Assembly: GCA_965230915.1 (NCBI GenBank)
Contig: OZ246395.1
Coordinates: 140,019-204,018 of the forward strand
Direction of reading: 5' to 3'
Origin: an uncultured Candidatus Saccharibacteria bacterium
GTDB lineage: Bacteria; Patescibacteriota; WWE3; 2-01-FULL-39-13
DNA length: 64,000 nucleotides
A program made the translations under genes and the position numbers. The notes under the pieces are model-generated. The model was given only the letters and a program-made list of their open reading frames with translations, did no database searches and was not told the DNA's origin. This document shows positions 2,426 to 64,000 of this stretch, piece by piece. Within the stretch, counting starts at the first letter, position 1, and every line of letters begins with the position of its first letter.

Positions 2426-2644
2426 TTTATTGACTCATCTTTCTAGTAGTATGGCGAAAACATAATAATCTAAACGCTTTTAGATTGCGACATTATATAC
2501 TAATTTCGTTAATAAATCTGTCATGCCTTTCAGCTATTGCTGAAAGAATGCGAAGAAACTGAGTCATTACTTCCGTTTTATAGGAAGATAGCAGAAGTGT
2601 AACTTCTGCGTTACATTCGGTAAAAATTGGGGTATATTTTCTTT

Positions 2645-4027: not shown

Positions 4028-4141
4028 TCTGAGTTATAAAGTATAGCGAAGATTAATAGAGAATTTGTAAAAATTCGCTTCTAATCTCGCCTATATAAGA
4101 AGCAACGGAAATAATACTTAATGTAAAAACATGAATGAATC

Positions 4142-23086: not shown

Positions 23087-23180
23087 CATTAATATTTAAC
23101 ATCAAAAAGTTGACGCATAATATATAAGGCCAAATTTAGGCTGTCTTACAAGCGAACTTTTCGATATGAAATACTAATGC

Positions 23181-24374: not shown

Positions 24375-24654
24375 TCATACAAATCTTATCAAATAAGGCT
24401 TTAACCTTAAAGGCTGGCGATATATGTTGTTCTCCTTGTCTTAGGTCGTGATTTTAAAATTTACTAACAAGAAATTGCGAAGTGTGAAAATTTGTAGCGA
24501 CAATTTTTTAATTGAGATTTTTATTGCTGATTCTCACTTTATCGCAAGCAAATCGATGTGAGAAATAGCTGGTATATCGATCTATTTTCATAACCCGAAC
24601 CCATAGTTACAAGTTTACCTTGACTAGGTATGTTGCTCGATGTAAGTTAAGGAC

Positions 24655-29469: not shown

Positions 29470-29591
29470 TTAATTATTTTCTTGCCCATAATTAACAATA
29501 AAATTTTGACAACGTTTCGTAGGTAGCTTGAGACTACAGGCTCAAGCGTGAAGCCGGAGGTACGTCGGAAAAATTTTAATGTTAATAATGC

Positions 29592-31346: not shown

Positions 31347-31347
31347 G

Positions 31348-34396: not shown

Positions 34397-34861
34397 ATGA
34401 GTACAAATCCTGCCAAAAATAAAATAGTTTTAACCTTTGATGATTTTTCTGTAATAAAAGATAAATTAGAAAACTTAAGATCTCAGGTTTATAAAACTGA
34501 TTTTAAATTTGAAGACTATCTAGATAAAAATTTCACTAAAGAACAAAAAGAATTTATTTCTAATGATGTTAATGTTACTGCTGACGCCGCCGCGTCAGAA
34601 AAATCTATTGATACATTCTTGAAAAATATTTCAAACGCAGAAACAATATTTGTTAAGGTACCTTTTGTTCCATCGGCTGGATTTATACAGTGGATTAAAG
34701 AATATTTGCAAGAAAAAACAGCAAACAACAACGATACATGTTTACTAATGAAAATCGACACGGATAAATCTTTGATTTCAGGTGCTCACATTGAATTTAG
34801 AGGCAAAATAAAAGATCAAACAGCTAAAAACGAAGTATTAAATATTTTTAAAGTATCTTGA
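34397..34861 (+). CDS. atpH: F-type ATP synthase subunit delta (OSCP)-like
   Basis: C-terminal ...LISGAHIEFRGKIKDQTAKNEVLNI resembles the delta C-terminal (I)GG..V..G...DGS motif. Stop overlaps the atpA start (ATGA). Confidence 0.55.
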   Translation: MSTNPAKNKIVLTFDDFSVIKDKLENLRSQVYKTDFKFEDYLDKNFTKEQKEFISNDVNVTADAAASEKSIDTFLKNISNAETIFVKVPFVPSAGFIQWIKEYLQEKTANNNDTCLLMKIDTDKSLISGAHIEFRGKIKDQTAKNEVLNIFKVS

Positions 34862-36354: not shown

Positions 36355-36397
36355 GTTTAGAGGCGTTTAAATTTTTCAAAAGGCAATTCCATGCCTT

Positions 36398-38687
<2,290 letters not shown>

Positions 38688-38709
38688 TAGGCCTTGTTTG
38701 TCATATTAT

Positions 38710-38982
38710 TTAAAGGGATTCTAGGCCGACAAGTATTTCTACTTCGTTTTTTACGCATTTTAAAATACCTTTCCCGATTCTAAGTTGGACTTTTTCATTG
38801 TGGTTGGTTTGGATTAGGATATTTCTCTTAATAATTGATATAAAGCTTTGATGGCCTGGTAGGACATCGAAGCGACCCTCCTCATTTTCCGATGAAACGG
38901 ACTTCGCAGAGCCTGAGTAGATCGTTTTTTCTGATTCTATAACTTTTACCTCTAGTTTTTGTGTTTTATCTTTGGTTTCCAT
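38710..38982 (-). CDS. atpC: ATP synthase epsilon-like protein (N-terminal beta-sandwich only, 90 aa), encoded on the opposite strand, convergent with atpD
   Basis: LEVKVIESEKTIYSGSAKSVSSENEEGRFDVLPGHQSFISIIK matches the epsilon N-terminal-domain pattern (…IVTPE..I..G....V.......G..GIL.GH.P…). The C-terminal helical hairpin is absent. Confidence 0.5.
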   Translation of the reverse strand: METKDKTQKLEVKVIESEKTIYSGSAKSVSSENEEGRFDVLPGHQSFISIIKRNILIQTNHNEKVQLRIGKGILKCVKNEVEILVGLESL

Positions 38983-39143: not shown

Positions 39144-39172
39144 TTGCTATGCTTTCAAAGCTTTTGTATAAT
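39144..39172 (+). promoter_or_regulatory. putative sigma70-type promoter for the giant gene: TTGCTA, 17-nt spacer, TG-TATAAT
   Basis: -35-like ttgcta (39144-39149), 17-nt spacer, then tgTATAAT (-10 at 39167-39172), ~38 nt upstream of the ATG at 39210. Confidence 0.4.
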
Positions 39173-39209: not shown

Positions 39210-42200
39210 ATGGATACAACGAATCTTGACAATTTAAGAGATGTTAATCGGTTAGTACCAACTGACGAGATTATTAAACTTGCCAAAGATAGTGGAGTTA
39301 AATTCGGTTTCGGAGATGCAAGAAATCGTATCAGATACTTCGTTAAAAATGGGCTTCTTCCTCATCAAGTCCGTAAAGTTTTAGACGGAAAAATTACACC
39401 TCATCTTCCATACTCTGCACTTGAGAGGCTAATTGAAATCCAGGATCTTCAAACTACTTTTAAATATACAATCCCTCAACTTATAGAGCATTTTAATGAC
39501 TCTAACGTAAAGCAAGAGCGTTCAAAGTTTGAAGGATCAACTCCACAACCTATTGATGTTCCTGAAGAAGAGATTGTCGATGAAACAGTAAGTTCCACCT
39601 CTAATACCCCAGTTGCTCCTAATTCCGTGATAGATGCAACAAATGCTGCATCAGCCAATAGCATAGGTTCTGGGGATAATAATTCCTCTGTTATAGAAGA
39701 AGTTAAGCCACAAAAAAATGGTGGTTTTCAACCAATCGTCGGTAGCGAAGCTAGTAAGTTAGAAGTTGCGAATGGGAAGGTAAATGTAGGAGATTTGGCA
39801 AATGATGAGTTAGAAAATAAGACAGCAAAAGAGGTTGCGACAAAGCATGTCGGTAAGTACGCCTTAATTGCAGCTGGATTTTTACTTCTATTAATAGGTG
39901 TCATATCTCCATCGTTAGTAAGTGGTAAAGGTATTAATTTAGGTTGGCTGAAGAACGGGTTAAGTGATAGTTTTGGATTTTTACAAGATAAGGTAAATAA
40001 TGATGAAAATGCTCCTGCTGCTTCGGGCAACTTGGCGCAAAATGTCACAGATAGCACACAGGTAAGCTCAAATACTAATACAACAAATACTCAGGCATCG
40101 GTTTCAATATTTGGAATAAATATTCCAGCATATTTTTCAAATACGACTACATTCGGATCAGATGTCAATTTTGAGGGAAACCTTAATATAGAAAACCAGG
40201 ATATCAATTTGGGAACCGGGTCAATTCTTGCCTCAAATATTATCTACACAATTACGGGTGGAAATGGAATGCAGGTTTCGGCTGGCCAAAACCCTGTAAT
40301 TACAAATACTGGTGTATTAAGTATAGGTGGAGAATCAGGTGACATTGAATTAGCGGCTGGTGAAGGTATTGAAGTTGATGGAACCCAAATTACTAATATA
40401 GGAGTCCTTAGCCTTGGTGGAGAAACAGGTGAGCTTGAATTATCTGCTGGTGCAGATATAGATATAAATGGTTTACAAGTTGCACTTCAACCGGTACTAG
40501 ATACGGTTGAACAGATAAATTTGCCTGCAGATTCTGCAACAGCTTTGAAATTTGGCGGTATTGGAATTGGCCAAGCTGGTACATCGGTTTCTACATCGGG
40601 AGCTTCTTTAATCGGAATATATGACAATTTAGTCAACAGCTCAGCATCGAATCTACAATTGGCAGTTTCGGATATCGATACAGCGATAGGTGATCGCGAT
40701 TATTCGTTCCCACATTACATATCAGACGGACAAACTGTGACAGAAAGTTTAGAAACTTTAGATTCAACAATTTGGGGAATAGTCGGAGGTTCGATTGTCT
40801 GGTTTGATGGGGGCAATTACGTTTATACATCTGATTCTGAATACTTGGGAAATCCAACTAGTGGAGGAGCTAATAAAGTTACTGGGCTTTTCCTAGAAGA
40901 TAATGCCCCTATAACTTTTGGTACAAGCAATAATTTTACTGCTGTATTTGATGGAACACAGTTCGCTATGACGGATGGTTCTAACATTTTTATGAGTTTA
41001 GTTGATAGTGGTGCAAGCGCGAATTTTGCAATTAACAGGGATGACTTATTTGTTGCTCATGACGGTAAGGTAGGTATTGGAACAACTGCCCCGAGTTCTG
41101 CTTTACACGTAATCGGAAGTGCCAATATAACCGGTCAATTAACCTTAGGCAATGTTCCAACTGTAGGCGCTACTTCAACTGTGTTAACAAGCAGCTCTGG
41201 AGTTATTTCAGCTATGGATGTAAGCAGTTGGGATCTTGATTCATCCGATGATGTAACCACATTTTTAGGGTTAACAGATACGCCTGCTTCATATGCAGGG
41301 GCTGCTAATTATTTTGTAAGAGTAAATGGTGGCGGTACTGCATTGCAATTTACTGATTTAAGTGCATGGGATCAGGATTCTTCAGATGATTTAACCGGTT
41401 CAGGTGTAGATAGGTTCATTCCACTTTGGAATTCTGCTTCAGACTTGGTAACGTCTATTTTATATCAGGAAAGTGTGACAAATAATGTCGGTATCGGTAC
41501 TACAGATCCTGAATATGCTCTAGATATCGTAGGCGATATCAATACTTCTACAGATTTATTCGTTAATAATATTGCATTAAGTTCAACCGGGGGAGCAGGT
41601 TTAATTGGGGTTGATAGTACCAACATTGCAAATTCTTCAGCCACTATATTGCAAGATGTTTTAGAGGACCTAGACGCTTCTATCCAAAGCGGCTCACATG
41701 ATCCATTAACTTTAGCTGGCTCTTATGATTACTTAACATTAGATGGTCCGAATCAAGTTCTTACTCTAAATCAGATTGATTTAACAACAGGTACCGGAGA
41801 TGTAACTGGTTTATTAGGCGTGACAAATGGTGGTTTAGGCGCAAATGTATCAGCAGCTGGGGCTGGAGAATTGTTATTCTCGACTTCAACAACTGCTTAC
41901 GATTCTTTAAGTGCCGGATCTTCGAATCAGATTTTATTATCGAATGGAGCAGCTTCTCCTAGCTGGGTTAACTTAAGTACTTTGATTTCAGGGGGGGATG
42001 ATATTAGTGTGACCGGAACTACGTCCTTAACAGTTGCTTTGGAGGATAATATAGATCTTATTTCAGTAAATGCTGCCAGTGATGCGGGTATTAGCTTTTA
42101 TGATAATGGTAGCAACTTAGGTATGTTTATCGAGGATGGTGGTCAGATTGGTGTTGGTAGAACAAATCCTGAATACACATTAGATGTATCTGATACAGGA

Positions 42201-45200
42201 AGATTTGGAGGTCAATTGACATTAGCTTCTGTTCCATCTAGTGCAAGCAATAGCGTTTTAGTATATGGAGCGGGCGGAATTGTTTCACAAAGAGATGCTA
42301 GCGGTTGGGATACAGATGCGTCAAATGATGTCACCACTTTCTTGGGATTAACCGATACACCAAGTACATACGCAGGAAGCGCTAACTATATAGTCCGAGT
42401 TAATGGAGCAACAAACGCACTAGAGTTCTTAGATGCAGCAGGTTGGGATCAAAATGCTGCAGATGACTTAACCATTTCAGGAACAGCAAATCGTTCAGCT
42501 AAATTTAATGCATTAGGAAATAATGTAATGGAAGGATCTATAGATGATCTATATAACGCAGTTGCAGTAACAATTGATGCAAGCGGTAAGGTCGGTATCG
42601 GAACAACTGGCCCACAATTTGCATTAGATGTTGTCGGAAGAATTAGAGCTACAACCGATTTAATGGTTGGATCAGTAAATTTGGCTGACAACTCTTCAGC
42701 TGCAAGCGGAGCATCATTAATAGGAGTATTTGATAATAGCTTAACTTATGTTTCTGGTAATACTAATGTTCAAAGTGCTATTGAGCAATTAGATGCAGCA
42801 ATTGCAACAGCATCAGTCGGTGATATTTCTGCGATCGGTGATGTAACAAGTGGCGATGCGTTTACATCGGGCGGAACACAGGGAACAAGTTTATGGTTCT
42901 ATGATGCAGATGGAAGAGGTCAATTAACAATTGCTAACTTAACAGGACCACAGACATACACATTGCCGGACGCTAGCGGTGAGATTTCATTATTGGGTCA
43001 AACAATTGCAAACAACGAATTAGTAAATTCAGATATCACATTCAATGGTGATTCGGGTTCCGCCGCTATCTCCTTGGGCGGGGATTTTGACGTGATCGGC
43101 GGACCCGGAATCAGCACTTCAATATCAGCTACAACACTAACAATTACTAATACTGATTTAGGATCTACACAAAACATCTTCAAGAATATAGCTGTATCTG
43201 GCCAAAACACAGTTGTTGCAGATGCTAACAACGACACAATGACCCTAGTTGCAGGTACAAACGTAACTATTACAACAGACGATACAACTGATTCCGTAAC
43301 AATAAATGCAACAGATACTAATACAACATATACAGCAGGCAACGGTTTAACTTTAGCCGGAACAACATTCAAGTTCGGTGGAACAATTAGCGAAGATACA
43401 AGACTATTTAGTGCTACATCTGGAGAGATTCTATTTGTAAACGATACAACCGGAAATATTGGTTTGGGTATGACAGCTCCAGGCTACAAGTTAGATATAA
43501 ATGGAACAGCTAGAGTAGGCGGTCAATTAACATTAAGCAATGTTCCTTCCACATCTAATAATAATTTAGTGTTAACAGTAAACGGTGGAGTTGTTAGCTC
43601 TATAGATACAAGCGCGTGGGATACAAATGCGTCAAATGATGTCACTACTTTCTTGGGATTAACAGATGCTCCTGACTCATACACAGGCAGCGAGACTTAT
43701 TTAGTAAGAGTAAAGGCAGATGGAACAGGCTTAGAATTTGTAGATCCTGCGACAGTAGGCGGAGTTAACTCAGTCACAAATAGTGATGGAACATTAACAA
43801 TCTCTCCAACAACCGGAGCTGTTGTTGCTTCATTAAATTTAAATCAAGCAAACGCTTGGCTAGCTGCTCAAACATTTAGTGCCAATACATATTTTGGTGG
43901 AAATGGAATTTGGAGTTCTACAGGTGATGTCGGTATCGGTACAACTGCACCAGCATATAAACTTGATGTTGTTGGTGGAATTAGAACAACAACAGACTTG
44001 TTTGTAGGCAATATTGGATTAGGAACAACACAGCCTACAGGCTCAGGAGCTTCACTAGTTGGCGTTTATAATGGAAACTTAACAAACTCTATTGCTACAA
44101 ATGTTCAGTCTGTATTAGAGGATTTAGATGCTGCAATAGCAGGTTCTTCACACGATGCAGTTACATTAGCAGGTGCATACGATTACTTAACATTAAGTGG
44201 CCAACAGATTACATTGCAACAGATTGATTTAACTGAGGATGTAATAGGAGTATTGCCAACCTCAAATGGCGGTACCGGGCTAAATATTGATCCTACTGCA
44301 ATTGCTGACGGCCAGATTTTAATTGGAAACAATGCTGGTGACACATTTAGCTTAGCTACTATAACTCAAGGAACAGGTATTTCTATAACAAACGGTTCAG
44401 GAACAATTACTATTGCCAACTCTGACTTGGGTTCTAGCCAAAATATCTTTAAGAATATAGCTGTAAATGATCAAGGAACTGTGTCAACTGATACAAACAA
44501 TGACACTTTGACATTAGTCGCAGGAACAAACGTAAGTATTACAACCGATACCGGATCAGATTCAATAACAATTAACGCTACCGACACAGATACAACATAC
44601 ACAGCAGGCAATGGTTTAACTTTAGCAGGAACAACCTTCAAATTCGGTGGAACAATAACAGAGCCTACAAGATTAGCTGATGGCTCATTCGAATATCTAT
44701 TCTTAAATAATGCAAATGGAAGAGTAGGTATTGGAACAACTAACTCAGGTAGCAAGCTATCGGTAAGCGGTAACCAATCTATCGGTTCTACATATGCATT
44801 ATTGGCGGCTCCAACTAATGGATTAATCGTAGAAGGAAATACAGGAATCGGAGTAACGGCAACTATCTACCAATTAGAAGTTGGCGGAACAGCGGCTGTA
44901 CAAAACCTAGTATTAGGTGGAACACAAATAACAACAACTGGAACCGAAATTAATTTACTAAGCGGATTAACATCGACTTCAACAGAACTGAACTACCTAG
45001 ACGGAACAACAGTTCCAGCTGGTGCAGTGATGTTCGGAGACGGAACAAAGATTACAAATGATATTTCTAATTTCTTCTTTAATGATTCAACAAACAGATT
45101 AGGTTTGGGAACATCATCTCCAGATGCGACAATCGATGTCGCCGGTACAGCATGGTTACGAGGTAATTTATCCGCAGAAGGTTTATATGTTAACTCATCA

Positions 45201-57200: not shown

Positions 57201-60200
57201 TCAGGCGGAGTTTTATTTGGCGATGGAAGCAAGATCACAAATGATGTTTCAAACTTCTTCTTTAACTCAACAACAAAGAGATTAGCAATTGGAACATCAG
57301 CAGCAAATAGCGGTTTAACAGTAAATGGTAGCGGATCATTCGGCGCTGGTTATTCAAATATCGGAATTTCAGCTCCACTAAATGGATTATTAGTACAAGG
57401 CAATGTCGGAATTGGAACAACAAACCCAGGAACATATGCATTAAATGTTGCCGGTACAGCAAATGTAAACGCTTTATCTATCGGAAACTTATTACTAAGC
57501 GCAAATTCATCCGCTACATCGGGTGCAACTTTAGTCGGACTAAATGACAACTCATTAACATACGTATCTGGAAATACAAACGTTCAATCGGCTATCGAAC
57601 AACTTGATGCAGCAATCGCAACAGCAGCAACTGGCGACATTTCAGCAATTGGCGACGTAACAAGCGGCGCAGCATTTACATCGGGCGGAACACAGGGAAC
57701 AAGTTTATGGTTCTATGATGCAGATGGAAGAGGTCAATTAACAATCGATAACTTATCAGCTGCAAGAACCTACACATTACCAAATGCATCAGGTGAAATT
57801 TCATTACTGGGCCAAACAATCAGTAACGCAGAGTTAGTTAATTCAGATATTACATTCAATGGTGATTCGGGTTCCGCCGCTATTTCCCTGGGCGGGGATT
57901 TTGACGTGATCGGCGGACCCGGAATCAGCACTTCAATATCAGGTACAACACTAACAATTACTAATACCGATTTAGGCTCTACACAAAACATCTTCAAGAA
58001 TATAGCTGTATCTGGTCAAAATACAGTTGTTGCAGATGCTAACAACGATACAATAACCCTAGTTGCAGGATCAAATGTAACAATCACAACAAATGACACC
58101 ACAGACACAATTACAATTGCTGCTACAGATACAAATACAACTTACACAGCAGGCAACGGTTTAACATTGGCGACAACTCAATTCAAGTTAGGCGGTCAAA
58201 TAACAGAGCCAACAAGATTATTCGATGGATCTAATGAGTATTTATATATAAATCCAAACACAGGTAATTTAGGTATTGGAACAACAAATTCAGCATACAA
58301 ACTAGAAGTAAATGGAAGCTTCAACGCAGCTGGTAATTTCTATTTAGCAGGTTCTCAGGTAACTTCATCAGCTGCTGAATTAAATATCTTAGATGGTGTA
58401 ACATCAAATGCTACAGAACTTAACTACCTGGATAACTCAACAGTTGTGTCAGGCGGAATGGTATTTGGTAATGGAAGCAACTTCACACAAGATGCAGCAA
58501 ATATTTTCTACAACTCAACAACAAAGAGACTTGCAATCGGAACATCGGCAGCAAATAGTGGCTTAACCGTAAATGGTAGTGGTTCATTTGGAGCAGGTTA
58601 CTCAAATATCGGAATTTCAGCACCATTAAATGGATTACTGGTGCAAGGAAACGTCGGTATTGGAACAACCAACCCTTCGGCGACATTAGATGTAGCAGGT
58701 AATATCAAACTTGGAACAGCTGGTAATAGCGCCACAATCACTTTCCCAGTAACGACTTCTGGTTCAAGCTTCGTACCTTTGATTCAGAGTATCTACGGAT
58801 CTAACGCGCTTCGTATGAGCATGGATAGCAGTAACTATATTCAAATCCTTGGTAGTGGTGGTGGTGCAAATATTCAGAGTGGTGGAAGTAATTTTACACT
58901 TAATGGTACTGCAGCAACATTCAGCTTAAACGGTTTTGGGGAAGTCTTTAGAGCCACCAGTTCAGGAACTGTTGGTATTGGAACATCAGTACCTGGAAGT
59001 AAATTATCAGTTAGTGGCAATCAAGCAATCGGAGCTTTGTATTCAAGATATGCAGCTCCAACCGATGGATTAATCGTTCAAGGAAATGTCGGAATTGGTT
59101 ACACCGCAACAAACTATGCGTTAGGCGTAAATGGAACCGGTAACTTCTCAGATTTAGCAATTGGAGGAACATTATTCTCGGCAAATTCATCGGCAACATC
59201 TGGAGCTTCATTGGTCGGATTAAATGACGACGCAATGACATACATAAGTTCTAATACAAACGTTCAAAGCGCAATCAAACAATTAGATACAGCAATTGCA
59301 TCGGTTTCAGGTTCAGCAATAACAATCTCAGGAACCGACAACAGATTAGCAAGATTTAATGCAGCCGGTAATAACGTCGAAGATTCATCACTCAATGATT
59401 TATATACAGGCGGAGTTGCATTAACAATTGGAGCAAATGGAAATGTTGGAATCGGTTACACAGCAACCAACTATAGATTGGCAGTAGCTGGAACAGCAGC
59501 GTTACAAAACTTAGTACTTGGAGGAACACAAATCACTGCTACTGGAACAGAAATAAACAAACTATCTGGATTAACCTCATCAACAGCTGAATTAAATATT
59601 TTAACTGGTGTAACAACAAATGCTACAGAACTAAACTATCTAGACAATTCAACAGTCGTATCCGGCGGATTAGTCTTCGGAAACGGATCAAACTTTACAC
59701 AAGATACATCAGACTTATTCTGGAACAGCTCTCTAAACAGATTAGGAGTTGGAACATCAGGCCCAGAAAGCACATTAACCGTAAAAGGTGGGGCAACAAT
59801 AGGCGCAGGTTATACAGGAATTGGAATTTCGGCTCCAACAAATGGATTATTAGTACAAGGAAACGTTGGAATCGGAACAACCGCTCCAATTCAAGCTTTG
59901 GACGTGTCAGGAAGTATCAGGGCTACTGGTTCGGGTAACTTTTCTGGAACTGTAATTGCTAAAGCAGGGAGTGCATCAGATCCTGCATATCAATTCCAAG
60001 GCTTAGGTAATGTAGGCATGTATATGGTTGCCACTGGATTAGGGTTCTCATCTGCTGGTCTGGAAAGAATGCGTATAGACGTAAATGGCAACGTTGGAAT
60101 CGGAACAACTGCTCCTTCATACAAACTCGACGTAAACGGTGATGCAAGAGTAGCTTCAGGATCAGACTTCTATGTCGGTTCAATCGGCCTAAACGACACA

Positions 60201-63200
60201 GCAGGAACATCAACATCAGGTGCATCACTAGTCGGTGCATTCGACGAATTCGCATACTCATCATCAAGCAATGTTCAAGACGTGTTAGACGATTTGGATG
60301 CAGCAATCGCAACAGTATCAGGCTCAGCTTTAACAATCTCCGGAACCGACAATAGAATCGCTAGATTCAATGCTGCAGGCAACAATGTTGAAGATTCATC
60401 TCTAAACGATAACTACACAGGTGGAGTTGCATTAACAATCGACACAGAAGGCGACATCGGAATCGGAGTAACAGCTTCAATCTACAAATTAAATGTAAAC
60501 GGAAGTTTGAACACAACAGCTTTATCCCTAGGCGGGTCACAGGTAAACTCATCAGCCGCAGAAATAAATGTATTACAAGGTGTTAACACGGGAACACTAA
60601 CAGGTTCAGAACTTAACTTGGTAGATGGAGCAACCGCTACAAATGGCGGACTAGTCTTCGGAAATGGAACAAGATTTGCACAGGATGCTGCAAGTTTATT
60701 CTGGGATGATTCGAATAATAGATTAGGTATTGGGATAACCGCACCTGCTCAGGCTCTAGATGTAATGGGTTCGATCAGATCAAACGGAAGCTATTTAATC
60801 AATGGAAACTCTAATTTCATACTAAATGGAACTACTTTGAATTTGGGATCTAATGACGCTGTTATACAAGCAAAATGGGGTAGCGCAAACTTAAATATTA
60901 GGTCTGGCGATATTGGTGGATACGGAACGATCTCATTCCAGAGAACAAATGGCACTCCTATTACAACAATGTTTATAGATGCTTTAGGCAACATCGGAGT
61001 TGGTACCACAGCTCCAGAAAGCAGATTCACACTAGCAGGCAACGCATCAATCGGCTCTGGTTACACAGCAATCGGAATCTCAGCTCCAACAAATGGACTT
61101 CTAGTTCAAGGTAACGTAGGGCTAGGCTTAACAAACCCAGGCTCATTCAACTTAAACGTAAACGGAACAACAAGACTTGGTGGAGCATTAACTTTAGGAA
61201 CAGTTAACTCAACAGCAAACAATAACCAGGTATTAACAGTAAATTCTGGAGTAGTAAGTTACATCGACACAAGCACATGGGATACCGATTCATCAAACGA
61301 TTTAACAATCTCAGGTACTGATAACAGAATCGCAAGATTTAATGCAGCAGGAACAAACGTCGAAAACTCTTCAATAAATGATAACTATACTGGTGGAGTC
61401 GCATTAACAATCGATGCAGAAGGCGATGTCGGAATCGGCGTAACAGCTTCAATCTATAAATTAGCAGTCGGTGGAACCGCATCTGTATCTAGCTTGGTAC
61501 TAGGTGGAACTCAAATAACTGCAACCGGAACCGAAATTAACAAATTAAGCGGATTAACTTCATCAACATCAGAACTCAACTTACTAACAGGCGTCAACTT
61601 AACATTATCTGCTTCAGAAATAAATACATTAGACGGAATAACATCATCAACAGCTGAACTAAATTATGTAGACAACGCAACTGTAACTTCTGGTGGAATG
61701 GTATTTGGAAACGGTTCCAACTTCACTCAGGATGCTGCAAATATTTTCTATAACAGCACAACAAAGAGACTTTCAATCGGAACATCAGCAGCAAATAGCG
61801 GTTTAACAGTAAACGGATCAGGATCATTCGGCGCTGGTTATTCAAATATCGGAATTTCAGCTCCATTAAATGGCTTACTAGTGCAAGGAAACGTTGGAAT
61901 CGGAAACACAAACCCAGGCGGTTATGCACTGGCAGTCGGCGGAACAGCAAATGTTTCTAACTTATCTATCGGCGGATTATTATTAAATACAAATTCATCT
62001 GCCACATCTGGCGGAACATTAGTCGGAATCAACGATAATAGCTTGACCTATATCTCAGGTAACACTAATGCTCAGTCAGCAATCGAACAATTAGATGCAG
62101 CAATAGTAAGCGTTGCAAGCGGAGCATCAGGACTTTGGACCGATGCTGGTACAACAACTTACTTAACAACATTAACCGACAACGTCGGAATTGGAGTAAC
62201 AGCTACAAACTACAAGTTAGCAGTAAGTGGAACAGCAGCTGTAAGCAACCTGGTACTTGGTGGAACTCAAATCACTGCAACTGGAACTGAAATCAATTTA
62301 TTAAGCGGATTAACAGCTACATCGTCAGAATTAAATATCTTAGATGGTGCAACACTAAATACAACCGAGCTTAACTACCTAGATAACTCAACAGTAGTAT
62401 CAGGCGGAATGGTGTTCGGAAACGGTACAAACTTTACACAAGACACTGCAAATATCTTCTGGAATTCAACAACAAAGAGATTCGGTATCGGGACAAGTGC
62501 TCCAAGAAGCGCATTAACAGTATCGGGTAATGGTTCGTTCGGAGCAGGTTACGCAGCAATTGGAATCTCAGCTCCACTAAATGGCTTACTAGTCGAAGGC
62601 AATACTGGCATCGGAGTAACGGCAACTATCTATAAATTAGAAGTGGGTGGAACAGCCGCTGTTAAGAACTTAGTACTTGGTGGAACTCAAATCACATCAA
62701 GCGCTACAGAATTAAACAAACTAACAGGTGCAACATTATCTACAGCCGAACTTAACTACTTAACCGGAACAACAGTTACAAATGGTGGAGTTCTTTATGG
62801 CGACGGATCAAAGATCACAAACGATGTTTCTAACTTCTTCTTTAACAGCACATCAAAGAGATTGTCTATTGGTACTTCCGCAGCTAATAGCGGCTTAACA
62901 GTAAATGGTTCGGGATCATTTGGTGCAGGTTATTCAAATGCTGGAATTTCAGCTCCATTAAATGGATTAATCGTACAGGGTAATACAGGTATCGGATCAT
63001 CTGCTCCATCAGCATTATTATCGGTAGGCGCTTCAAATCAATTCTTGGTTAACTCATCAGGAAACATTGATAGAATCGGCGGAGTTAATCATACAATCAG
63101 CAACAATGGTGGAAACTTATTATTAACCGGAAATGGTGAACTTCAATTTGACGATTCGACATTGGCATCAGCAGTTCAATTAACTGATTTAGATAACTCA

Positions 63201-63998
63201 TTACCAAATTCAAATATCGGTATTATAGATGCGATCAACGACGCATATAACGCAGCTGTCGGTACAAGCGGAGGTCTTTGGACATTGTCATCAGGAGTTA
63301 TCTCTCCAACAACAGCAACAAACGACTTCGCAATCGGCGGATCGACATTGGCTGCATCAATCTTTAGTATCGATGAATCAGCTGGAACATTCTTATTCGG
63401 TGGAGACCAATCAGCAAATCCAATATTGAGATTTGAAGCTACAGATAACGATACAGCTGATTTTGGATTCAATACAAACGACAGCTTCTATATCGCAGGT
63501 GGAAGTTTAGGTATCGGTTATTCAGCACCAGGATCAACCTTATCAGTATCCGGAAACCAGGCAATTGGTGCTAACTATGCAAGATTGGCAGCTCCAACTA
63601 ATGGATTAATCGTAGAAGGTAATGTTGCAATCGGATTAACAGCAACAAACTACAAATTAGCTATCGGTGGAACAGCTGCAACTCAGAACTTGGTATTAGG
63701 CGGAACACAGATTACATCATCTGCCGCAGAAATAAATGTATTGCAGGGTGTAAACACTGGAACACTAACAGGCTCAGAACTTAACTTTTTAGACGGCGCA
63801 ACTGTAACCGCCGGCGGAGTTGTTTATGGCGATGGAACAAAACTAACACAAAGCGCAACTAACTTCTTCTGGGATAGTACAAACTTAAGACTAGGAGTAG
63901 GAACTTCAGCTCCATCACAAAGATTCCAGGTAAATACAAATGATTCGCCATTCGTAGTGACAAGCACAGGTTCAGTTGGAATTGGAACTACTTCTCCG
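39210..63998 (+). CDS. giant repetitive surface protein (more than 8,260 codons; 3' end beyond the window). N-terminal ~225-aa domain, single TM helix, then tandem shuffled Gly/Thr/Asn/Ser/Ala-rich fibre-like repeats
   Basis: I translated frame 0 by hand from ATG 39210 (preceded by an in-frame TAA at 39198) to the window end and found no stop. Frame checkpoints at 43311, 50040 and 63510 are all positions divisible by 3. The ORF track shows no + strand ORF here, which is expected if it only reports ORFs that reach a stop. TM helix KYALIAAGFLLLLIGVISPSLV is preceded by Lys-rich residues (N-in). Recurrent motifs: VGIGTT.P...LDV.G; SLWFYD.QGRGQLTIANLTG.QTYTLPDASGEISLLGQTI; TDTNTTYTAGNGLTLA; GSGY.G.GISAP.NGLLVQGNVGIGTTNP; LGGTQITATGTEINLLSGLTS.S.ELNYLDGTT. 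Confidence 0.85.
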   Translation, partial: MDTTNLDNLRDVNRLVPTDEIIKLAKDSGVKFGFGDARNRIRYFVKNGLLPHQVRKVLDGKITPHLPYSALERLIEIQDLQTTFKYTIPQLIEHFNDSNVKQERSKFEGSTPQPIDVPEEEIVDETVSSTSNTPVAPNSVIDATNAASANSIGSGDNNSSVIEEVKPQKNGGFQPIVGSEASKLEVANGKVNVGDLANDELENKTAKEVATKHVGKYALIAAGFLLLLIGVISPSLVSGKGINLGWLKNGLSDSFGFLQDKVNNDENAPAASGNLAQNVTDSTQVSSNTNTTNTQASVSIFGINIPAYFSNTTTFGSDVNFEGNLNIENQDINLGTGSILASNIIYTITGGNGMQVSAGQNPVITNTGVLSIGGESGDIELAAGEGIEVDGTQITNIGVLSLGGETGELELSAGADIDINGLQVALQPVLDTVEQINLPADSATALKFGGIGIGQAGTSVSTSGASLIGIYDNLVNSSASNLQLAVSDIDTAIGDRDYSFPHYISDGQTVTESLETLDSTIWGIVGGSIVWFDGGNYVYTSDSEYLGNPTSGGANKVTGLFLEDNAPITFGTSNNFTAVFDGTQFAMTDGSNIFMSLVDSGASANFAINRDDLFVAHDGKVGIGTTAPSSALHVIGSANITGQLTLGNVPTVGATSTVLTSSSGVISAMDVSSWDLDSSDDVTTFLGLTDTPASYAGAANYFVRVNGGGTALQFTDLSAWDQDSSDDLTGSGVDRFIPLWNSASDLVTSILYQESVTNNVGIGTTDPEYALDIVGDINTSTDLFVNNIALSSTGGAGLIGVDSTNIANSSATILQDVLEDLDASIQSGSHDPLTLAGSYDYLTLDGPNQVLTLNQIDLTTGTGDVTGLLGVTNGGLGANVSAAGAGELLFSTSTTAYDSLSAGSSNQILLSNGAASPSWVNLSTLISGGDDISVTGTTSLTVALEDNIDLISVNAASDAGISFYDNGSNLGMFIEDGGQIGVGRTNPEYTLDVSDTGRFGGQLTLASVPSSASNSVLVYGAGGIVSQRDASGWDTDASNDVTTFLGLTDTPSTYAGSANYIVRVNGATNALEFLDAAGWDQNAADDLTISGTANRSAKFNALGNNVMEGSIDDLYNAVAVTIDASGKVGIGTTGPQFALDVVGRIRATTDLMVGSVNLADNSSAASGASLIGVFDNSLTYVSGNTNVQSAIEQLDAAIATASVGDISAIGDVTSGDAFTSGGTQGTSLWFYDADGRGQLTIANLTGPQTYTLPDASGEISLLGQTIANNELVNSDITFNGDSGSAAISLGGDFDVIGGPGISTSISATTLTITNTDLGSTQNIFKNIAVSGQNTVVADANNDTMTLVAGTNVTITTDDTTDSVTINATDTNTTYTAGNGLTLAGTTFKFGGTISEDTRLFSATSGEILFVNDTTGNIGLGMTAPGYKLDINGTARVGGQLTLSNVPSTSNNNLVLTVNGGVVSSIDTSAWDTNASNDVTTFLGLTDAPDSYTGSETYLVRVKADGTGLEFVDPATVGGVNSVTNSDGTLTISPTTGAVVASLNLNQANAWLAAQTFSANTYFGGNGIWSSTGDVGIGTTAPAYKLDVVGGIRTTTDLFVGNIGLGTTQPTGSGASLVGVYNGNLTNSIATNVQSVLEDLDAAIAGSSHDAVTLAGAYDYLTLSGQQITLQQIDLTEDVIGVLPTSNGGTGLNIDPTAIADGQILIGNNAGDTFSLATITQGTGISITNGSGTITIANSDLGSSQNIFKNIAVNDQGTVSTDTNNDTLTLVAGTNVSITTDTGSDSITINATDTDTTYTAGNGLTLAGTTFKFGGTITEPTRLADGSFEYLFLNNANGRVGIGTTNSGSKLSVSGNQSIGSTYALLAAPTNGLIVEGNTGIGVTATIYQLEVGGTAAVQNLVLGGTQITTTGTEINLLSGLTSTSTELNYLDGTTVPAGAVMFGDGTKITNDISNFFFNDSTNRLGLGTSSPDATIDVAGTAWLRGNLSAEGLYVNSSGNVGIGGTAATSAPFFFNTSSGFATNLSSATALTVGANGTAYATFDTTLGSSSDLLSLNAPAGSTLGNLFAIYDNGSPVFKVSQNQIESAVPHTFTAAGDVSMSYDLNFTNPTAAYINFDGPGYIRTNNPSGNYDLTLSAANSGVVYIDDNLTISGTQLTLTNAAALDLAASTTALNIENGLLNLDSTNARVGIGTTVPGSTLSVAGNQAIGATYARLAAPTNGLIVEGNVGIGFTATNYKLAVAGTAAVSNFVLGGTQITATGAEINLLSGLTSTSSELNYLDGTTVVAGGVMFGDGTKIAQDTSNFFFDSASKRLAIGTSAANSGLTVMGSGSFGAGYSNIGISAPLNGLLVQGNVGIGMTNPGAFALNVNGNIKTSGDLFIGNIGLGTTNSATSSGAYLVGVFDEFDNSNSTNVQAVLNDLDAAIASSAGGSITGIGDVSSGDAFTAGGTSGTSLWFYDPQGRGQLTIANLTGAQTYTLPDASGEISLLGQTIGNAELDNSTITFNADTGTVASALGDSFAINGGPGISTEISGTTLTITNTDLGSSQNIFKNISVSGQGTVSTDTNNDTLTLVAGTNVTITTDTGSDSITINATDTNTTYTAGNGLTLATTTFKLGGTITEDTRLANGSFDYIFLNNSDGNVGIGTTGPLFKLDVNGTARFTGNVTLGSVPADSSNNVLVLDGSGVVSQRDISAFDQNASDDVTTFLGLTDTPSSYTGNETYLVRVNAAGNALEFIDPTTVGGVNSVANSDGTLTISPTTGNVVASINLNNANVWTGSQTFSANTYFPGSGVWDTSGDVGIGTTDPQYKLDVAGSINVLGFYLSGVALTSSADELNILDGATLSTSELNILDGVTSTAAEINYLDNSTVLAGGMVFGNGTNFTQDVSNVFYNSTTKRLGIGTSTPGNTLGVAGAAAIGSGYAGTGISAPANGLLVQGNVGIGTTNPAFKLDVNGDIRVVSGSDLYIGAIGMNDNASLSSGASLIGLYDDSMTYISGNTTVQDAIKQLDTAIASAATGDITAIGDVASGAAFTSGGTQGTSLWFYDPQGRGQLTIANLTGDQTYTLPDASGEISLLGQTIGNSELENSTITFAGDTGSNASALGTTFNIVGGTGIGTSVGGNNVSIINTDRGSSQSIFKNFAVSGQNTVVADANNDTLTLAAGSNITITTNDTTDTITIAATDTNTTYTAGNGLTLATTQFKLGGQITEPTRLFDGSNEYLYINPNTGNLGIGTTNSGYKLEVNGTFNAASGFYLAGSQVTSNASELNILDGATLNTTELNYLDGTTVVAGGITFGNGSYIAQDPADFFWNNTSNRLGLGTSAPTTTLDVAGTFRVTGNTTLGDASGDTVTSNAASWIFANATTIDLANSTAALSIEGGLLGFDSSNGRIGIGTTAPSKTLDVIGGIRTTDDLYVGLIGLNDNGSTSSGSSLIGLYDNSLVYISGNTTVQSAIEQLDAAIATTAGNQHDPVTLAGSLAYLTLNDQEITLNAIDLTTDVSGVLPLENGGTGKNIDGTAITNGQILIGNATTDGFDLATITQGTGISVTNGAGSITITNTDLGSSQNIFKNIAVNDQGTVSTDTNNDTLTLVAGTNVTITTDDTTDSITINATDTNTTYTAGNGLTLAGTVFKFGGTITEPTRLADGSFEYLFLNNANGRVGIGTTNSGSKLGIAGNVGIGNSYATYAAPANGLIVEGNIGVGFTATNYKLGVNGTAAVSNLVLGGTQITATGTEINKLSGLTSSTAELNILTGVTTNATELNYLTGSSVVSGGIVFGDGSKFTQDAANLFFNNTSKNLSIGSTAGGSRLSVNGGAAIGSGYIGTALSAPTNGLLVQGNVGIGTTNPGTYALNVNGTANANALSIGNLLLSANSTATSGGTLVGINDNSLTYVSANTNVQSAIEQLDAAMSSNFSGVITAIGDVTAGDAFTSGGTQGTSLWFYDAQGRGQLTIADLTSARTYTLPDASGEISLLGQTISNAELDNSTITFAGDTGSNASALGTTFNIVGGTGIGTSVGGNNVSIINTDRGSSQNIFKNFAVSGQNTVSTDTNNDTLTLVAGTNVTITTDDTTDSVTINATDTNTTYTAGNGLTLAGTTFKFGGTITEPTRLADGSFEYLFLNNGNGRVGIGATNSGSKLSVAGNVGIGNSYATYAAPANGLIVEGNTGLGVTATNFKLEVGGTAAVKNLVLGGTQITATGTELNKLTGATLSTTELNYLTGTTVTSGGVLFGDGTKITNDSANFFWNDSTNRLGLGTTAPGQQLELTGNILLQGSGKIYFDGPASTNYSISRSANRFRLDSADSFTIGLDSTGLTGDAFLNITDRNVSRVYMDANGLFGIGTSAPESLLTVKGNASIGSGYTGIGISSPLNGLLVQGNVGIGNTNPGAYALNVTGNQNISGTLTLGTVNSTSNNNQVLTVNNGVVSYIDTSGWDTNASNDISTFLGLTDTPSSYSGVGSQFVRVNAGESALEFVDLSAWDQNAADDLTISGTDNRIARFNAAGNNVENSSIDDAYTGGVALRIFANGTIGIGVTATNYQLAVGGTASVSNLVLGGTQLTVTGTELNLLSGLTATSSELNILDGATLSTAELNILDGATVTAAELNYLDNSSVLAGGLVFGNNSNFTQDVANIFWNDSTKRLGIGTSAPGQTLSVAGTFGIKEGGSSPHFFTAFQGGDQSADITYTLPVDDGSSDYVLVTDGNGVLSWQSVGGVGAGTGDITAVIAGGGLSGGASTGDATLDIGAGNGITVNADDIAIKLAISSGVGATASYSGLEVNSNGLSMLTGCGQGEILTWDDSNNIWKCASIASSGGITGTGTANYVPLWNTSSDLTNSVIYQTGSSLGIGTTVPGSNLSVSGNQAIGALYSRYAAPANGLIVEGNVGIGYTATNYKLAVAGTAAFSNLVLGGTQITATGTEINKLAGLTSSTSELNILTGVTANATEINYLDNSSVLAGGLVFGNGSNFTQDVGSIFFDSTNKRLGVGTSAPTSALSVNGGAAIGSGYAGGGVSAPTNGLLVQGRVGIGTTNPSSTYALDVNGSIRATSLNTASSTYQNALISNSGAFNVSVGGGSNLYMTLNGTSASDNYIVRTGTTDLFRVGGNGKVGIGTTAPESLLSVKGNQTIGAGYTGIGISAPVNGLLVQGVVGIGMTNPGAFGLNVGTGINTLDDLYVNSVGLNDNASTTSGASLIGLNDDSMTYISGNTTVQSAIKQLDTAISSGLGGTITAIGDVTSGDAFTSAGTQGTSLFFYDPQGHGQLTIANLTGDQTYTLPDASGEISLLGQTISNSELVNSDITFNGDSGSAAISLGGDIDVIGGPGISTSISGTTLTITNTDLGSTQNIFKNIAVSGQNTVVADANNDTMTLVAGTNVTITTDDTTDSITIAATDTNTTYTAGNGLTLASTTFKLGGTISEDTRLANGSFEYLFLNNANGRVGVGTTNSGSKLSVNGNQAIGATYASYAAPANGLIVEGNTGLGVTATIYKLEVGGTAAVKNLVLNGTQITATGTEINKLSGLTSSTAELNILTGVTTNGTELNYLDNSTVLAGGLVFGNGSNFTQDISNIFFNSTSKNLGIGTSAPGSRLSVAGGAAIGSGYVGSGLSAPTNGLLVQGNVGIGTTNPGTYALNVAGGVNVSTLSIGNLLLSANSTATSGATLVGLNDDSLTYVSGNTSVQDAIKQLDTAIATAATGDISAIGDVASGAAFTSGGTQGTSLWFYDPQGRGQLTIANLTGDQTYTLPDASGEISLLGQTISNAELDNSTITFAGDTGSNASALGTTFNIVGGTGIGTSVGGNIVSIINTDRGSSQSIFKNIAVSGQNTVVSDANNDTLTLAAGSNVTITTNDTTDTITIAATDTNTTYTAGNGLTLASTTFKLGGSITEPTRLSDGSFEYLFLNNGNGRVGIGTTNSGSKLGIAGNVGIGNSYATYAAPSNGLIVEGNVGLGVTATNFRLSVNGTAAVTNLVLGGTQITATGTEINLLSGLTSTSTELNYLDGTTITSGGVLFGDGSKITNDVSNFFFNSTTKRLAIGTSAANSGLTVNGSGSFGAGYSNIGISAPLNGLLVQGNVGIGTTNPGTYALNVAGTANVNALSIGNLLLSANSSATSGATLVGLNDNSLTYVSGNTNVQSAIEQLDAAIATAATGDISAIGDVTSGAAFTSGGTQGTSLWFYDADGRGQLTIDNLSAARTYTLPNASGEISLLGQTISNAELVNSDITFNGDSGSAAISLGGDFDVIGGPGISTSISGTTLTITNTDLGSTQNIFKNIAVSGQNTVVADANNDTITLVAGSNVTITTNDTTDTITIAATDTNTTYTAGNGLTLATTQFKLGGQITEPTRLFDGSNEYLYINPNTGNLGIGTTNSAYKLEVNGSFNAAGNFYLAGSQVTSSAAELNILDGVTSNATELNYLDNSTVVSGGMVFGNGSNFTQDAANIFYNSTTKRLAIGTSAANSGLTVNGSGSFGAGYSNIGISAPLNGLLVQGNVGIGTTNPSATLDVAGNIKLGTAGNSATITFPVTTSGSSFVPLIQSIYGSNALRMSMDSSNYIQILGSGGGANIQSGGSNFTLNGTAATFSLNGFGEVFRATSSGTVGIGTSVPGSKLSVSGNQAIGALYSRYAAPTDGLIVQGNVGIGYTATNYALGVNGTGNFSDLAIGGTLFSANSSATSGASLVGLNDDAMTYISSNTNVQSAIKQLDTAIASVSGSAITISGTDNRLARFNAAGNNVEDSSLNDLYTGGVALTIGANGNVGIGYTATNYRLAVAGTAALQNLVLGGTQITATGTEINKLSGLTSSTAELNILTGVTTNATELNYLDNSTVVSGGLVFGNGSNFTQDTSDLFWNSSLNRLGVGTSGPESTLTVKGGATIGAGYTGIGISAPTNGLLVQGNVGIGTTAPIQALDVSGSIRATGSGNFSGTVIAKAGSASDPAYQFQGLGNVGMYMVATGLGFSSAGLERMRIDVNGNVGIGTTAPSYKLDVNGDARVASGSDFYVGSIGLNDTAGTSTSGASLVGAFDEFAYSSSSNVQDVLDDLDAAIATVSGSALTISGTDNRIARFNAAGNNVEDSSLNDNYTGGVALTIDTEGDIGIGVTASIYKLNVNGSLNTTALSLGGSQVNSSAAEINVLQGVNTGTLTGSELNLVDGATATNGGLVFGNGTRFAQDAASLFWDDSNNRLGIGITAPAQALDVMGSIRSNGSYLINGNSNFILNGTTLNLGSNDAVIQAKWGSANLNIRSGDIGGYGTISFQRTNGTPITTMFIDALGNIGVGTTAPESRFTLAGNASIGSGYTAIGISAPTNGLLVQGNVGLGLTNPGSFNLNVNGTTRLGGALTLGTVNSTANNNQVLTVNSGVVSYIDTSTWDTDSSNDLTISGTDNRIARFNAAGTNVENSSINDNYTGGVALTIDAEGDVGIGVTASIYKLAVGGTASVSSLVLGGTQITATGTEINKLSGLTSSTSELNLLTGVNLTLSASEINTLDGITSSTAELNYVDNATVTSGGMVFGNGSNFTQDAANIFYNSTTKRLSIGTSAANSGLTVNGSGSFGAGYSNIGISAPLNGLLVQGNVGIGNTNPGGYALAVGGTANVSNLSIGGLLLNTNSSATSGGTLVGINDNSLTYISGNTNAQSAIEQLDAAIVSVASGASGLWTDAGTTTYLTTLTDNVGIGVTATNYKLAVSGTAAVSNLVLGGTQITATGTEINLLSGLTATSSELNILDGATLNTTELNYLDNSTVVSGGMVFGNGTNFTQDTANIFWNSTTKRFGIGTSAPRSALTVSGNGSFGAGYAAIGISAPLNGLLVEGNTGIGVTATIYKLEVGGTAAVKNLVLGGTQITSSATELNKLTGATLSTAELNYLTGTTVTNGGVLYGDGSKITNDVSNFFFNSTSKRLSIGTSAANSGLTVNGSGSFGAGYSNAGISAPLNGLIVQGNTGIGSSAPSALLSVGASNQFLVNSSGNIDRIGGVNHTISNNGGNLLLTGNGELQFDDSTLASAVQLTDLDNSLPNSNIGIIDAINDAYNAAVGTSGGLWTLSSGVISPTTATNDFAIGGSTLAASIFSIDESAGTFLFGGDQSANPILRFEATDNDTADFGFNTNDSFYIAGGSLGIGYSAPGSTLSVSGNQAIGANYARLAAPTNGLIVEGNVAIGLTATNYKLAIGGTAATQNLVLGGTQITSSAAEINVLQGVNTGTLTGSELNFLDGATVTAGGVVYGDGTKLTQSATNFFWDSTNLRLGVGTSAPSQRFQVNTNDSPFVVTSTGSVGIGTTSP
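43044..43300 (+). repeat. intragenic cassette, copy 1 of 3 (~96-98% DNA identity with 55095-55350 and 57858-58045); locally GC-rich codons (GGC/GCC/CCC) encoding GDSGSAAISLGGDFDVIGGPGISTSIS...
   Basis: Direct comparison of the three segments, e.g. aatggtgattcgggttccgccgctat[c/t]tcc[t/c]tgggcggggat[t/a]ttgacgtgatcggcggacccggaatcagcacttcaatatca... Confidence 0.8.
55095..55350 (+). repeat. intragenic cassette, copy 2 of 3 (near-identical to 43044-43300)
   Basis: Same ~255-bp block with a few substitutions. Confidence 0.8.
57858..58045 (+). repeat. intragenic cassette, copy 3 of 3 (near-identical to 43044-43300 over ~190 bp, then switches to a different cassette)
   Basis: Matches copies 1 and 2 through ...gcagatgctaacaacga, then continues as the 48700-49100-type cassette. 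Confidence 0.75.
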
Positions 63999-64000
63999 CA

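Follow-up and report, generated by a model that had tools for sequence, protein, structure and literature searches.

The 64,000-nucleotide window that we analysed (contig OZ246395.1 of assembly GCA_965230915.1, positions 140,019 to 204,018) ends inside a giant open reading frame (ORF). We propose that this ORF encodes the N-terminal 8,263 or more residues of a giant, membrane-anchored cell-surface fibre, which would bind host cells in the manner of the mosaic adhesive trimers (MATs) of Bdellovibrio or of phage tail fibres. The bacterium is a member of Patescibacteria (also called the candidate phyla radiation, CPR) and is related to WWE3 and Microgenomates. We give this proposal as a whole a probability of roughly 0.7. 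An earlier note on this DNA, made from the sequence alone, had described beta-solenoid repeats like those of tail fibres and chlorovirus glycoproteins, with an extreme density of N-glycosylation sequons, and had suggested a heavily glycosylated adhesin on the surface of a small-genome bacterium.

The two recurring motifs that the earlier note had pointed out are both present, far above chance. The giant protein contains 25 strict and 48 relaxed copies of the GIGTT motif ([IV]G[IVL]G[TRM][TSN].P). It also contains 13 strict and 34 relaxed copies of the ELNxLDG motif (EL[NS].L[DNS]G), which are often in tandem, with a spacing of 13 amino acids. When we shuffled the protein's composition, the average numbers of strict copies were 0.01 and 0.00, respectively. 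These motifs are parts of a mosaic with no fixed repeat unit: about nine near-complete cassettes of 390–460 amino acids are flanked by re-assorted sub-modules.

The GIGTT element is related to fibres of known structure. We built a profile solely from 31 copies in the window's protein and compared it to 177,635 sequences from PDB. The matches were Bd2133 (E = 1.7e-17, with three copies), Bd3182 (E = 1.7e-11, at both of its capping loops), Bd2439 (E = 3.2e-7), and Bd1334 (E = 1e-5). All four are MATs, and none of the other PDB sequences scored below E = 0.1. (MyRF, for which a motif link was made in PMC10769870, had a non-significant E of 2.1.) A single-sequence search of PDB gave just one match, 8OJN. 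Furthermore, a profile for the whole cassette aligns to almost the entire chain of Bd3182 (residues 1–146, E = 2.6e-4).

8OJN is Bd3182(632–922), a MAT fibre from Bdellovibrio bacteriovorus (PMC10769870). Bd3182 is an intertwined trimeric beta-helix, with a surface cleft that is bounded by two identical capping loops, R656–H669 and F752–H765 (PMC10769870). Because the first of these loops reads RVGVGTTAPTSALH, we equate the GIGTT element with the capping loop of Bd3182. MAT fibres are displayed on the cell surface and bind the glycans of prey; for instance, Bd2439 binds the O-antigen of Proteus, and S74 fibres bind O-antigen as well. The "meandering trimerization" of MATs is reported to be invariant (PMC10769870). 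At the level of sequence, then, the GIGTT element is homologous to the capping-loop and beta-strand unit of intertwined trimeric fibres (beta-helices and beta-prisms), namely MATs and the S74-type tail fibres and tailspikes of phages.

The giant protein also matches tail-fibre families from PHROG: phrog_9942 (E = 3.4e-14 and 1.3e-11), phrog_31660 (E = 1.9e-6), and phrog_18345 (E = 6.4e-5), over 40–110 residues each. GIGTT units are found in the "tail fiber domain-containing proteins" P0009 and P0053, both of which terminate in S74, and ELNxLDG 13-mers form long arrays in environmental proteins with this annotation that end in Peptidase_S74 (P0009 is an example). Together, the PHROG families, the crystallised MATs, and the relatives with Peptidase_S74 bear out the suggestion of tail-fibre-type repeats. 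The comparison to chlorovirus glycoproteins fared worse. It had been no more than a likeness of short Gly/Thr-rich repeat motifs to Chlorovi_GP_rpt. When we searched Pfam with the two halves of the protein (E ≤ 0.01) and with 700-residue pieces (E ≤ 5), no chlorovirus glycoprotein repeat was found, and neither was any tail-fibre repeat family, which is the comparison that the note had put forward as a check. As for the beta-solenoid, homology does indicate beta-helical fibre repeats, but the fold that it implies is a beta-helix or prism in which three chains intertwine, instead of a solenoid made from a single chain.

The cassettes are 42–87% identical to each other as proteins and 74–87% identical as DNA, and the longest exact DNA repeats are 100–149 bp. 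Cassettes 3–6 are up to 87% identical to cassettes 7–9 in amino acids (74–87% in DNA). Each of cassettes 7–9 contains GIGTT loops, a helix (VQxAIxQLDxAI), ELNxLDG repeats, the module TYTLPDASGEISLLGQ, and the module QNIFKNIAVSGQNTV...TDTNTTYTAGNGL. The arrays that flank the cassettes re-assort the same five or six sub-modules, of which the GIGTT element is the most common. Tandem Repeats Finder reported no tandem arrays or simple-sequence tandem repeats in the DNA, although the cassette period of about 1.3 kb is above its limit and the copies are just 74–87% identical.

The translation is free of stop codons from 39201 to 63998 on the + strand, and an ATG at 39210 is the earliest start codon in it. 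Given its protein-level relatives and its conserved synteny, we consider the giant ORF to be a real gene, and we rejected the reading that it is non-coding DNA or an artefact of assembly. The protein is 14% Gly, 13% Thr, 10% Ser, 9% Ala, 9% Asn, and 9% Leu, and it has just two cysteines. As the earlier note had said, charged residues other than Asp are scarce (5.6% Asp, versus 2.1% Glu, 1.4% Lys, 1.4% Arg, and 0.2% His).

The N-terminus of the protein has a different character. Residues 1 to about 215 are charged, without a signal peptide, and are followed by the protein's only transmembrane (TM) helix, at residues 217–239. All of the residues beyond this helix form a domain rich in Asn, Ser, and Thr. 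We infer that the helix acts as a signal-anchor, with the other 8,000 or so amino acids outside the cell. The "start module" that follows the helix is the best-conserved part of the protein among its orthologues.

Relatives of the cassette are widespread. An exhaustive HMMER search with one cassette yielded 4,754 representatives at E ≤ 1e-3, of which 70 reach E ≤ 1e-30, and the top relatives are themselves giants, of 5,875, 3,772, 6,147, 4,548, and 4,029 amino acids. P0132, which is complete (6,147 amino acids), shares the modules of the window's protein. It has a canonical helix-turn-helix (HTH) domain of the MerR family (Pfam E = 4e-10) and a TM helix, and its C-terminal region is distinct. 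P0145 (3,143 amino acids) shares the unusual N-terminus of the window's protein (43% identity over that domain); its TM helix lies near residue 183, and it also contains Peptidase_S74 (E = 1e-16). The same early modules, together with a MerR HTH and a TM helix, occur in P0045 (from Daviesbacteria), P0072 (WWE3), and P0073 (Patescibacteria), each of which is cut short by the end of its contig. Many of the relatives carry Peptidase_S74; P0074 has PF13884 and PF09458. None of the complete relatives P0132, P0145, and P0149 has an LPXTG motif with a TM helix at its C-terminus.

We also noticed an additional region past the fibre or the S74 domain in P0074, P0132 (residues ~5650–6147), and P0145 (the C-terminal 650 amino acids). 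It comprises a linker, which is coiled-coil-like or rich in Ser and Ala, and a beta-rich domain at the terminus that ends with "...GFIV+VD......W(I/M)A". The terminal domains of P0132 and P0145 resemble the end of P0074, where Pfam calls an H-type lectin domain; Pfam makes no such call in P0132 or P0145. Two other giants are unusual in their repeats. P0076 (3,772 amino acids) is rich in cysteine (152 Cys) and consists almost entirely of the module "QxIFKxIAVSGQ...TDxxTDTxT," which is free of cysteine in the window's protein. P0075 (5,875 amino acids) has long, near-identical tandem repeats of GIGTT, "LNDN..SSG..LVG," and helix modules.

The position of the gene is conserved too. The atp operon is followed by a gene for an HTH-TM-fibre protein in WWE3 (GCA_002774285.1) and in Daviesbacteria (GCA_030699125.1). 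Using the start module as a probe, we found 13 loci in the species representatives of GTDB (L005–L017): one each from WWE3, Shapirobacteria, and Saccharimonadales, four from Levyibacteriota, two from unclassified "Patescibacteria group" metagenome-assembled genomes (MAGs), one from an unclassified "bacterium" MAG, and three labelled as Gammaproteobacteria. There are atp genes within 10 kb upstream at 9 of the 13 loci, and at 8 of the 13, a single or double MerR HTH opens the protein, with a TM helix after it. The contig ends within the fibre gene at 10 of the 13 loci, as well as in both of the examples from NCBI (L003 and L004). Because assemblies break these genes so often, we think that the family is probably under-annotated: short-read MAG assemblies would disrupt it systematically. 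The three complete genes among the 13 loci encode 652, 661, and 2,007 amino acids, and complete copies overall range from 652 to 6,147. We conclude that this is a cellular gene of Patescibacteria that is conserved along with its synteny and whose size varies greatly. The N-terminal anchor and the syntenic orthologues in WWE3, Daviesbacteria, Levyibacteriota, and Shapirobacteria agree with the earlier suggestion of a surface fibre from a small-genome bacterium.

The three loci with Gammaproteobacteria labels (L007, L008, and L014) are from "uncultured Gammaproteobacteria" MAGs, whereas the gene is otherwise restricted to Patescibacteria. L007 encodes a double MerR HTH, like the copies from Levyibacteriota. 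These labels may reflect contamination during binning or mislabelling.

We propose that three chains trimerise co-linearly into a rigid, net-acidic, intertwined beta-helical fibre that is lined with Asn, Ser, and Thr; we propose a co-linear trimer because of the homology to units of MAT and S74 fibres. The N-terminal TM helix would anchor the fibre in the cytoplasmic membrane, and the rest would project outwards. Scaling from Bd3182 (about 550 Å per ~760 amino acids), the fibre would be very roughly 0.5 μm long, which is longer than a typical CPR cell. Its distal tip is not in the window. Relatives have as their tip either an S74 chaperone/autoprotease or a lectin-like domain, and the tip probably binds glycans on the surface of the host cell. 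The fibre would thus serve in host recognition and attachment, as part of an episymbiotic lifestyle.

Several results weigh against this proposal. Significant similarity to solved fibres is limited to units of about 35–50 residues. The modules TLPDASGEISLLGQ, QNIFKNI..., and ELNxLDG have no solved relative in PDB (the best match for the ELNxLDG region, the fibre 8I4M of cyanophage P-SCSP1u, is not significant, with E = 0.41). No family from Pfam or NCBIfam matches the giant protein, and a tblastn comparison of the cassette to 50,697 phage genomes gave no match at the level of BLAST. An AlphaFold2 model of one cassette as a monomer (residues 5565–6018, from a shallow alignment of 13 rows) had a pLDDT of 44.5 and a pTM of 0.24, and so it gives the fold no support. 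We consider the monomer model, a check of the kind that the earlier note had proposed, to be uninformative and not a refutation, because one chain cannot represent a fold whose beta-helix faces come from several chains. The estimate of the fibre's length assumes a MAT-like rise per residue. The C-terminal tip, and hence any binding domain, is beyond the window. That the chains trimerise, that the gene is expressed, that the fibre is displayed at the surface, and that it binds hosts are inferences in each case.

We also considered that the protein might be a structural surface layer, sheath, or spacer (a coat for the envelope or a tether between cells) instead of an adhesin that recognises specific hosts. 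Its extreme size, highly repetitive modules, and low-charge composition would suit such a role, as would a conserved single-copy gene beside housekeeping genes and the lack of a visible binding tip (the C-terminus being beyond the window). However, every homologous system whose function is known is a receptor-binding fibre (PMC10769870 and the PHROG tail-fibre matches), and relatives end in S74 or lectin-type tips. Furthermore, the sizes of the orthologues, from 652 to over 8,263 amino acids, are typical of adhesins under diversifying pressure and not of coats that form lattices. This makes a purely structural role unlikely. A mucin-like polymer of Ser, Thr, and Asn that is intrinsically disordered, with no defined fold, would account for the low confidence of the AlphaFold2 models and for the composition (Ser, Thr, Asn, and Gly together make up 47% of the protein). 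But Leu, Ile, Val, and Phe make up another 25%, no simple-sequence tandem repeats were found in the DNA, and the motifs are long, conserved at specific positions, rich in hydrophobic residues, and shared across phylum-level distances. Given these conserved hydrophobic motifs and the significant homology to crystallised beta-helical fibres, we rejected the disordered polymer, which seems very improbable. Least probable of all is that the gene belongs to a prophage, a tailocin, or a contractile injection system. Phage tail fibres do share its modules, but this protein begins with a cytoplasmic domain and a TM anchor, and with over 8,000 amino acids it far exceeds phage fibres. The 39 kb upstream are ordinary chromosome (ClpB, RadA, Rho, LeuRS, ArgRS, ComEC, Obg, NDK, and, directly upstream of the giant gene, the F-ATPase genes), without phage structural, integrase, or terminase genes. 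Several CPR lineages share the gene's position beside the atp operon. These observations, along with the lack of a match in the phage genomes, led us to reject an origin from a prophage.

The sequons require a separate argument. We counted N-x-S/T (where x is not proline) in the 8,000 amino acids encoded by 40000–64000 and found 208, or 2.6 per 100 amino acids. This is five times the density in the window's 29 other ORFs (0.53 per 100), so the density is indeed high in absolute terms. But composition alone predicts 174 (2.2 per 100), which leaves an excess of 20% (z of about 3 by naive shuffling). Because copies of a repeat are not independent, we also permuted the alignment columns of the nine aligned cassettes. 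This gave 85.4 ± 13.9 sequons, as compared to 106 observed (z = 1.5, P = 0.076), which is not significant. "Extreme" therefore describes the raw density and not the 1.2-fold ratio to expectation. Furthermore, the excess of D-x-S/T, which is not a sequon, is larger: 153 observed versus 104 by naive shuffling, and 77 versus 54 by column permutation. The bias for Asn followed by Ser or Thr occurs only at the i,i+2 spacing (1.20 times expectation, versus 0.82–0.89 for gaps of 1, 3, and 4). This is the pattern expected for polar residues on one face of a strand or for Asx/ST turns, and it argues for a structural origin.

Could the sequon density nevertheless have been selected for, with the fibre heavily N-glycosylated at these sites? 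Besides the absolute density, the 20% excess, and the i,i+2 bias, five columns that hold sequons are shared by six or more of the nine cassettes, and the giant relatives P0132 (147 sequons versus 112 expected) and P0075 (164 versus 115) also exceed expectation. But two other relatives are below it (59 versus 72 for P0076 and 11 versus 17 for P0045), G-x-S/T as well as D-x-S/T has an excess that is equal or larger, and the extended PglB-type sequon D/E-x-N-x-S/T is not clearly enriched (20 versus 13 ± 3.7). The earlier note had proposed looking for glycosyltransferases and oligosaccharyltransferases. In the window's 29 other ORFs, we found no N-glycosyltransferase of the STT3/PglB or GT41/HMW1C type, and the GT5 genes are of the glycogen-synthase type. 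The window's only candidate for protein glycosylation or glycan ligation is a 769-residue membrane protein with Wzy_C and TPR domains (8495–10804, + strand). We take the Wzy_C class to include O-antigen ligases and O-oligosaccharyltransferases, and the protein's role is presumed from its family. Finally, the homologous MAT fibres and S74 tail fibres fold without any need for glycosylation. Selection for N-glycosylation seems unlikely to us, and the claim about the sequons did not survive the comparison to composition, which the earlier note had itself named as a possible refutation. The high sequon density appears to be mostly a by-product of strands and turns that are rich in Asn, Ser, and Thr, and we see in it no evidence of N-glycosylation. 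O-glycosylation of the Ser/Thr-rich surface could still occur. More generally, a high count of sequons in a beta-helical repeat protein that is rich in Asn, Ser, and Thr should not be read as evidence of glycosylation.

The N-terminal domain raises the question of whether the fibre also carries signals. P0045, P0072, P0073, P0132, P0145, and loci L005–L017 share the layout of an HTH, a linker, and a TM helix. For the giant protein itself, membership in the MerR family is not demonstrated: the assignment rests on positional equivalence and on P0145, whose N-terminus just misses the threshold for MerR_1 or MerR (20.9 bits, with a cutoff of 21.6). The N-terminus of the giant protein has no Pfam hit to MerR, MerR_1, or HTH_17, and an hhalign comparison to MerR was not significant (probability 0.3). 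No relatives that share words with its first 110 amino acids were found. A single-sequence AlphaFold2 model of the first 105 had a pLDDT of 45.2. Nor is the N-terminus similar to the window's other HTH protein (24655–25869). That protein has 404 amino acids, with an N-terminal HTH_17/MerR-like domain, a Gln/Asn/Pro-rich low-complexity region of about 200 residues, and no TM helix.

ToxR and CadC are membrane-tethered one-component regulators with a cytoplasmic DNA-binding domain, one TM helix, and an external domain. The orthologues of the giant protein have a similar arrangement, with an N-terminal MerR-type HTH, one TM helix, and an external domain, but the HTH is of the MerR/HTH_17 type instead of the OmpR type, and a huge fibre replaces the small sensor domain. 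Because this CPR gene family joins a MerR-type domain, via a single TM helix, to a fibre of about half a micrometre, we speculate that the fibre might sense contact or tension directly. Binding of the host at the tip, or proteolytic release, would alter DNA binding by the N-terminal domain; or the fibre might instead tether the nucleoid to the site of attachment. The conserved adjacency to atp hints at a regulatory target for a DNA-binding domain at the N-terminus. We regard this idea as a long shot. If true, it would be a ToxR-like one-component system with a homologue of tail fibres as its sensor.

Table 1. Features of the giant gene and of the adjacent atp genes, in window coordinates.
Feature	Position	Strand	Evidence or remark
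F-type ATP synthase genes atpA, atpG, atpD (the range given also takes in the atpC-like ORF on -)	34858..38982	+	Pfam and ORF list
atpC-like ORF (ATP synthase epsilon-like)	38710-38982	-	Between atpD and the giant gene
Promoter-like site TTGCTA-17-TATAAT	39144..39172	+	Consensus scan; the start codon is 38 nt downstream
Giant ORF, 5' part only	39210..63998	+	At least 8,263 codons; stop-free to the window end
Predicted cytoplasmic N-terminal domain, aa 1-100, helical, divergent (NRIRYFVKNGLLP)	39210..39509	+	At the position of the orthologues' MerR-type HTH
Single TM helix, aa 217-239, YALIAAGFLLLLIGVISPSLVSG, with a Lys-rich flank before it	39858..39926	+	Read from sequence
Conserved start module ASNIIYTITGG.G..V..GQNPVITNTGVLSIGG...	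40197..40469	+	41-52% identity to P0072, P0073, P0074
First GIGTT capping-loop module, aa 604-675	41019..41234	+	Direct phmmer match to PDB 8OJN (Bd3182)
Full cassettes 1-2, aa 1107-1519 and 1571-1957	42528..45080	+	phmmer self-comparison with the cassette at aa 5565-6018
Full cassettes 3-6, aa 2309-2745, 2893-3310, 3387-3790, 3791-4244	46134..51941	+	
Triple tandem of the 13-residue ELNxLDG repeat, aa ~4555-4605	52872..53024	+	One example among 34 copies
Full cassettes 7-9, aa 5102-5564, 5565-6018, 6019-6434	54513..58511	+	
Distal mosaic of shuffled sub-modules, aa 6435-8263	58512..63998	+	Self-comparison; frame open at the window end

The promoter-like site is suggestive by its position alone: in the scan as a whole, such sites were no more numerous than in shuffled sequence. 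The inversion of atpC is also seen in the WWE3 locus (L003/L005), whereas atpC is co-directional in other CPR loci (L004 and L010). Within the giant gene, in a long repeat region with few stop codons, there is an antisense ORF of 161 amino acids (55007–55492, - strand), most likely by chance. Elsewhere in the window, an alpha-glucan cluster (26297–32829) contains two GT5 glycogen-synthase-like genes, one on each strand, along with a GH57 enzyme and a 584-residue fusion of an APH-type phosphotransferase to a protein-kinase domain. A sortase gene (22436–23086) adjoins a gene for a PEGA-domain membrane protein on the minus strand and the gene for the 404-residue HTH protein, in the region 22436–25869.

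The giant protein itself was not found in a database of 5.8 billion proteins, an exact 44-mer from the window's end had no match in the genome and metagenome contigs that we searched, and a lookup gave no exact match for the window's AtpD. For the window's NDK and LeuRS, identical proteins turned up only on two Logan contigs (L001, of 4.6 kb, and L002, of 7.1 kb), where their neighbours are also the same. These are from runs SRR14271365 and SRR14271372, so the same organism was present in both.

To our knowledge, little is known about how ultra-small CPR episymbionts recognise and hold their hosts, beyond type IV pili, and in the literature that we searched, we found no description of the HTH-TM-fibre architecture or of MAT-like fibres in CPR. 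Vampirococcus reportedly has giant proteins that are predicted to lie at the surface and proposed to act in attachment to a host or prey. The "Archaeovorins" and dockerin-type giants of Omnitrophota (bioRxiv 10.1101/2023.11.21.568195) are similar in these same respects. Unlike the window's protein, these giants reportedly consist of enzymatic, dockerin/cohesin, or other domains. A search of the preprint did not find the terms "tail fiber," "MerR," or "Patescibacteria."

The tail fibres and tailspikes of the S74 type (such as K1F endosialidase, 3GW6, and T5 pb1, 4UW8) are like the window's protein in the PHROG matches, the arrays of ELNxLDG, and the GIGTT units. The window's protein differs from them in being membrane-anchored, chromosomally encoded, and about 10 times longer, with no match to phages at the level of BLAST.

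The closest known system is the MAT fibres (Bd3182, 8OJN; Bd2133, 8OND; Bd2439, 8OL4; Bd1334, 8OML; PMC10769870). Both kinds of protein have the repeated unit x-M-x-I-D-x-x-G-N-V-G-I-G-T-T-A-P-x-x-x-L-x-V-x-G, including the capping loop, and both have a modular design with swappable tips, are encoded by cells, and come from bacteria that live by attachment to other cells. Relatives of the window's protein end in S74, as do 13 S74-type MATs. However, MATs have about 1,000 amino acids, a cleavable signal peptide, an invariant beta-rich N-terminal domain of about 130 residues that binds the surface, and 21 paralogues. In contrast, the window's protein has at least 8,263 amino acids, which is at least eight times longer, and it has a cytoplasmic domain and one TM helix in place of a signal peptide. 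It also has additional types of modules that MATs lack, and the window contains only a single copy, whose position next to atp is conserved. The cell that carries it differs as well, being a CPR cell of a Gram-positive-like kind that lacks an outer membrane. By analogy, the protein would work in the way of a MAT or a tail-fibre adhesin, though we class it as a distinct variant. This gene family links CPR, by sequence, to MATs, which are the only bacterial fibres with demonstrated recognition of prey glycans, and to the receptor-binding proteins of phages. It is thus a concrete and testable candidate for the host specificity of CPR episymbionts, and its genomic position is fixed across several lineages.

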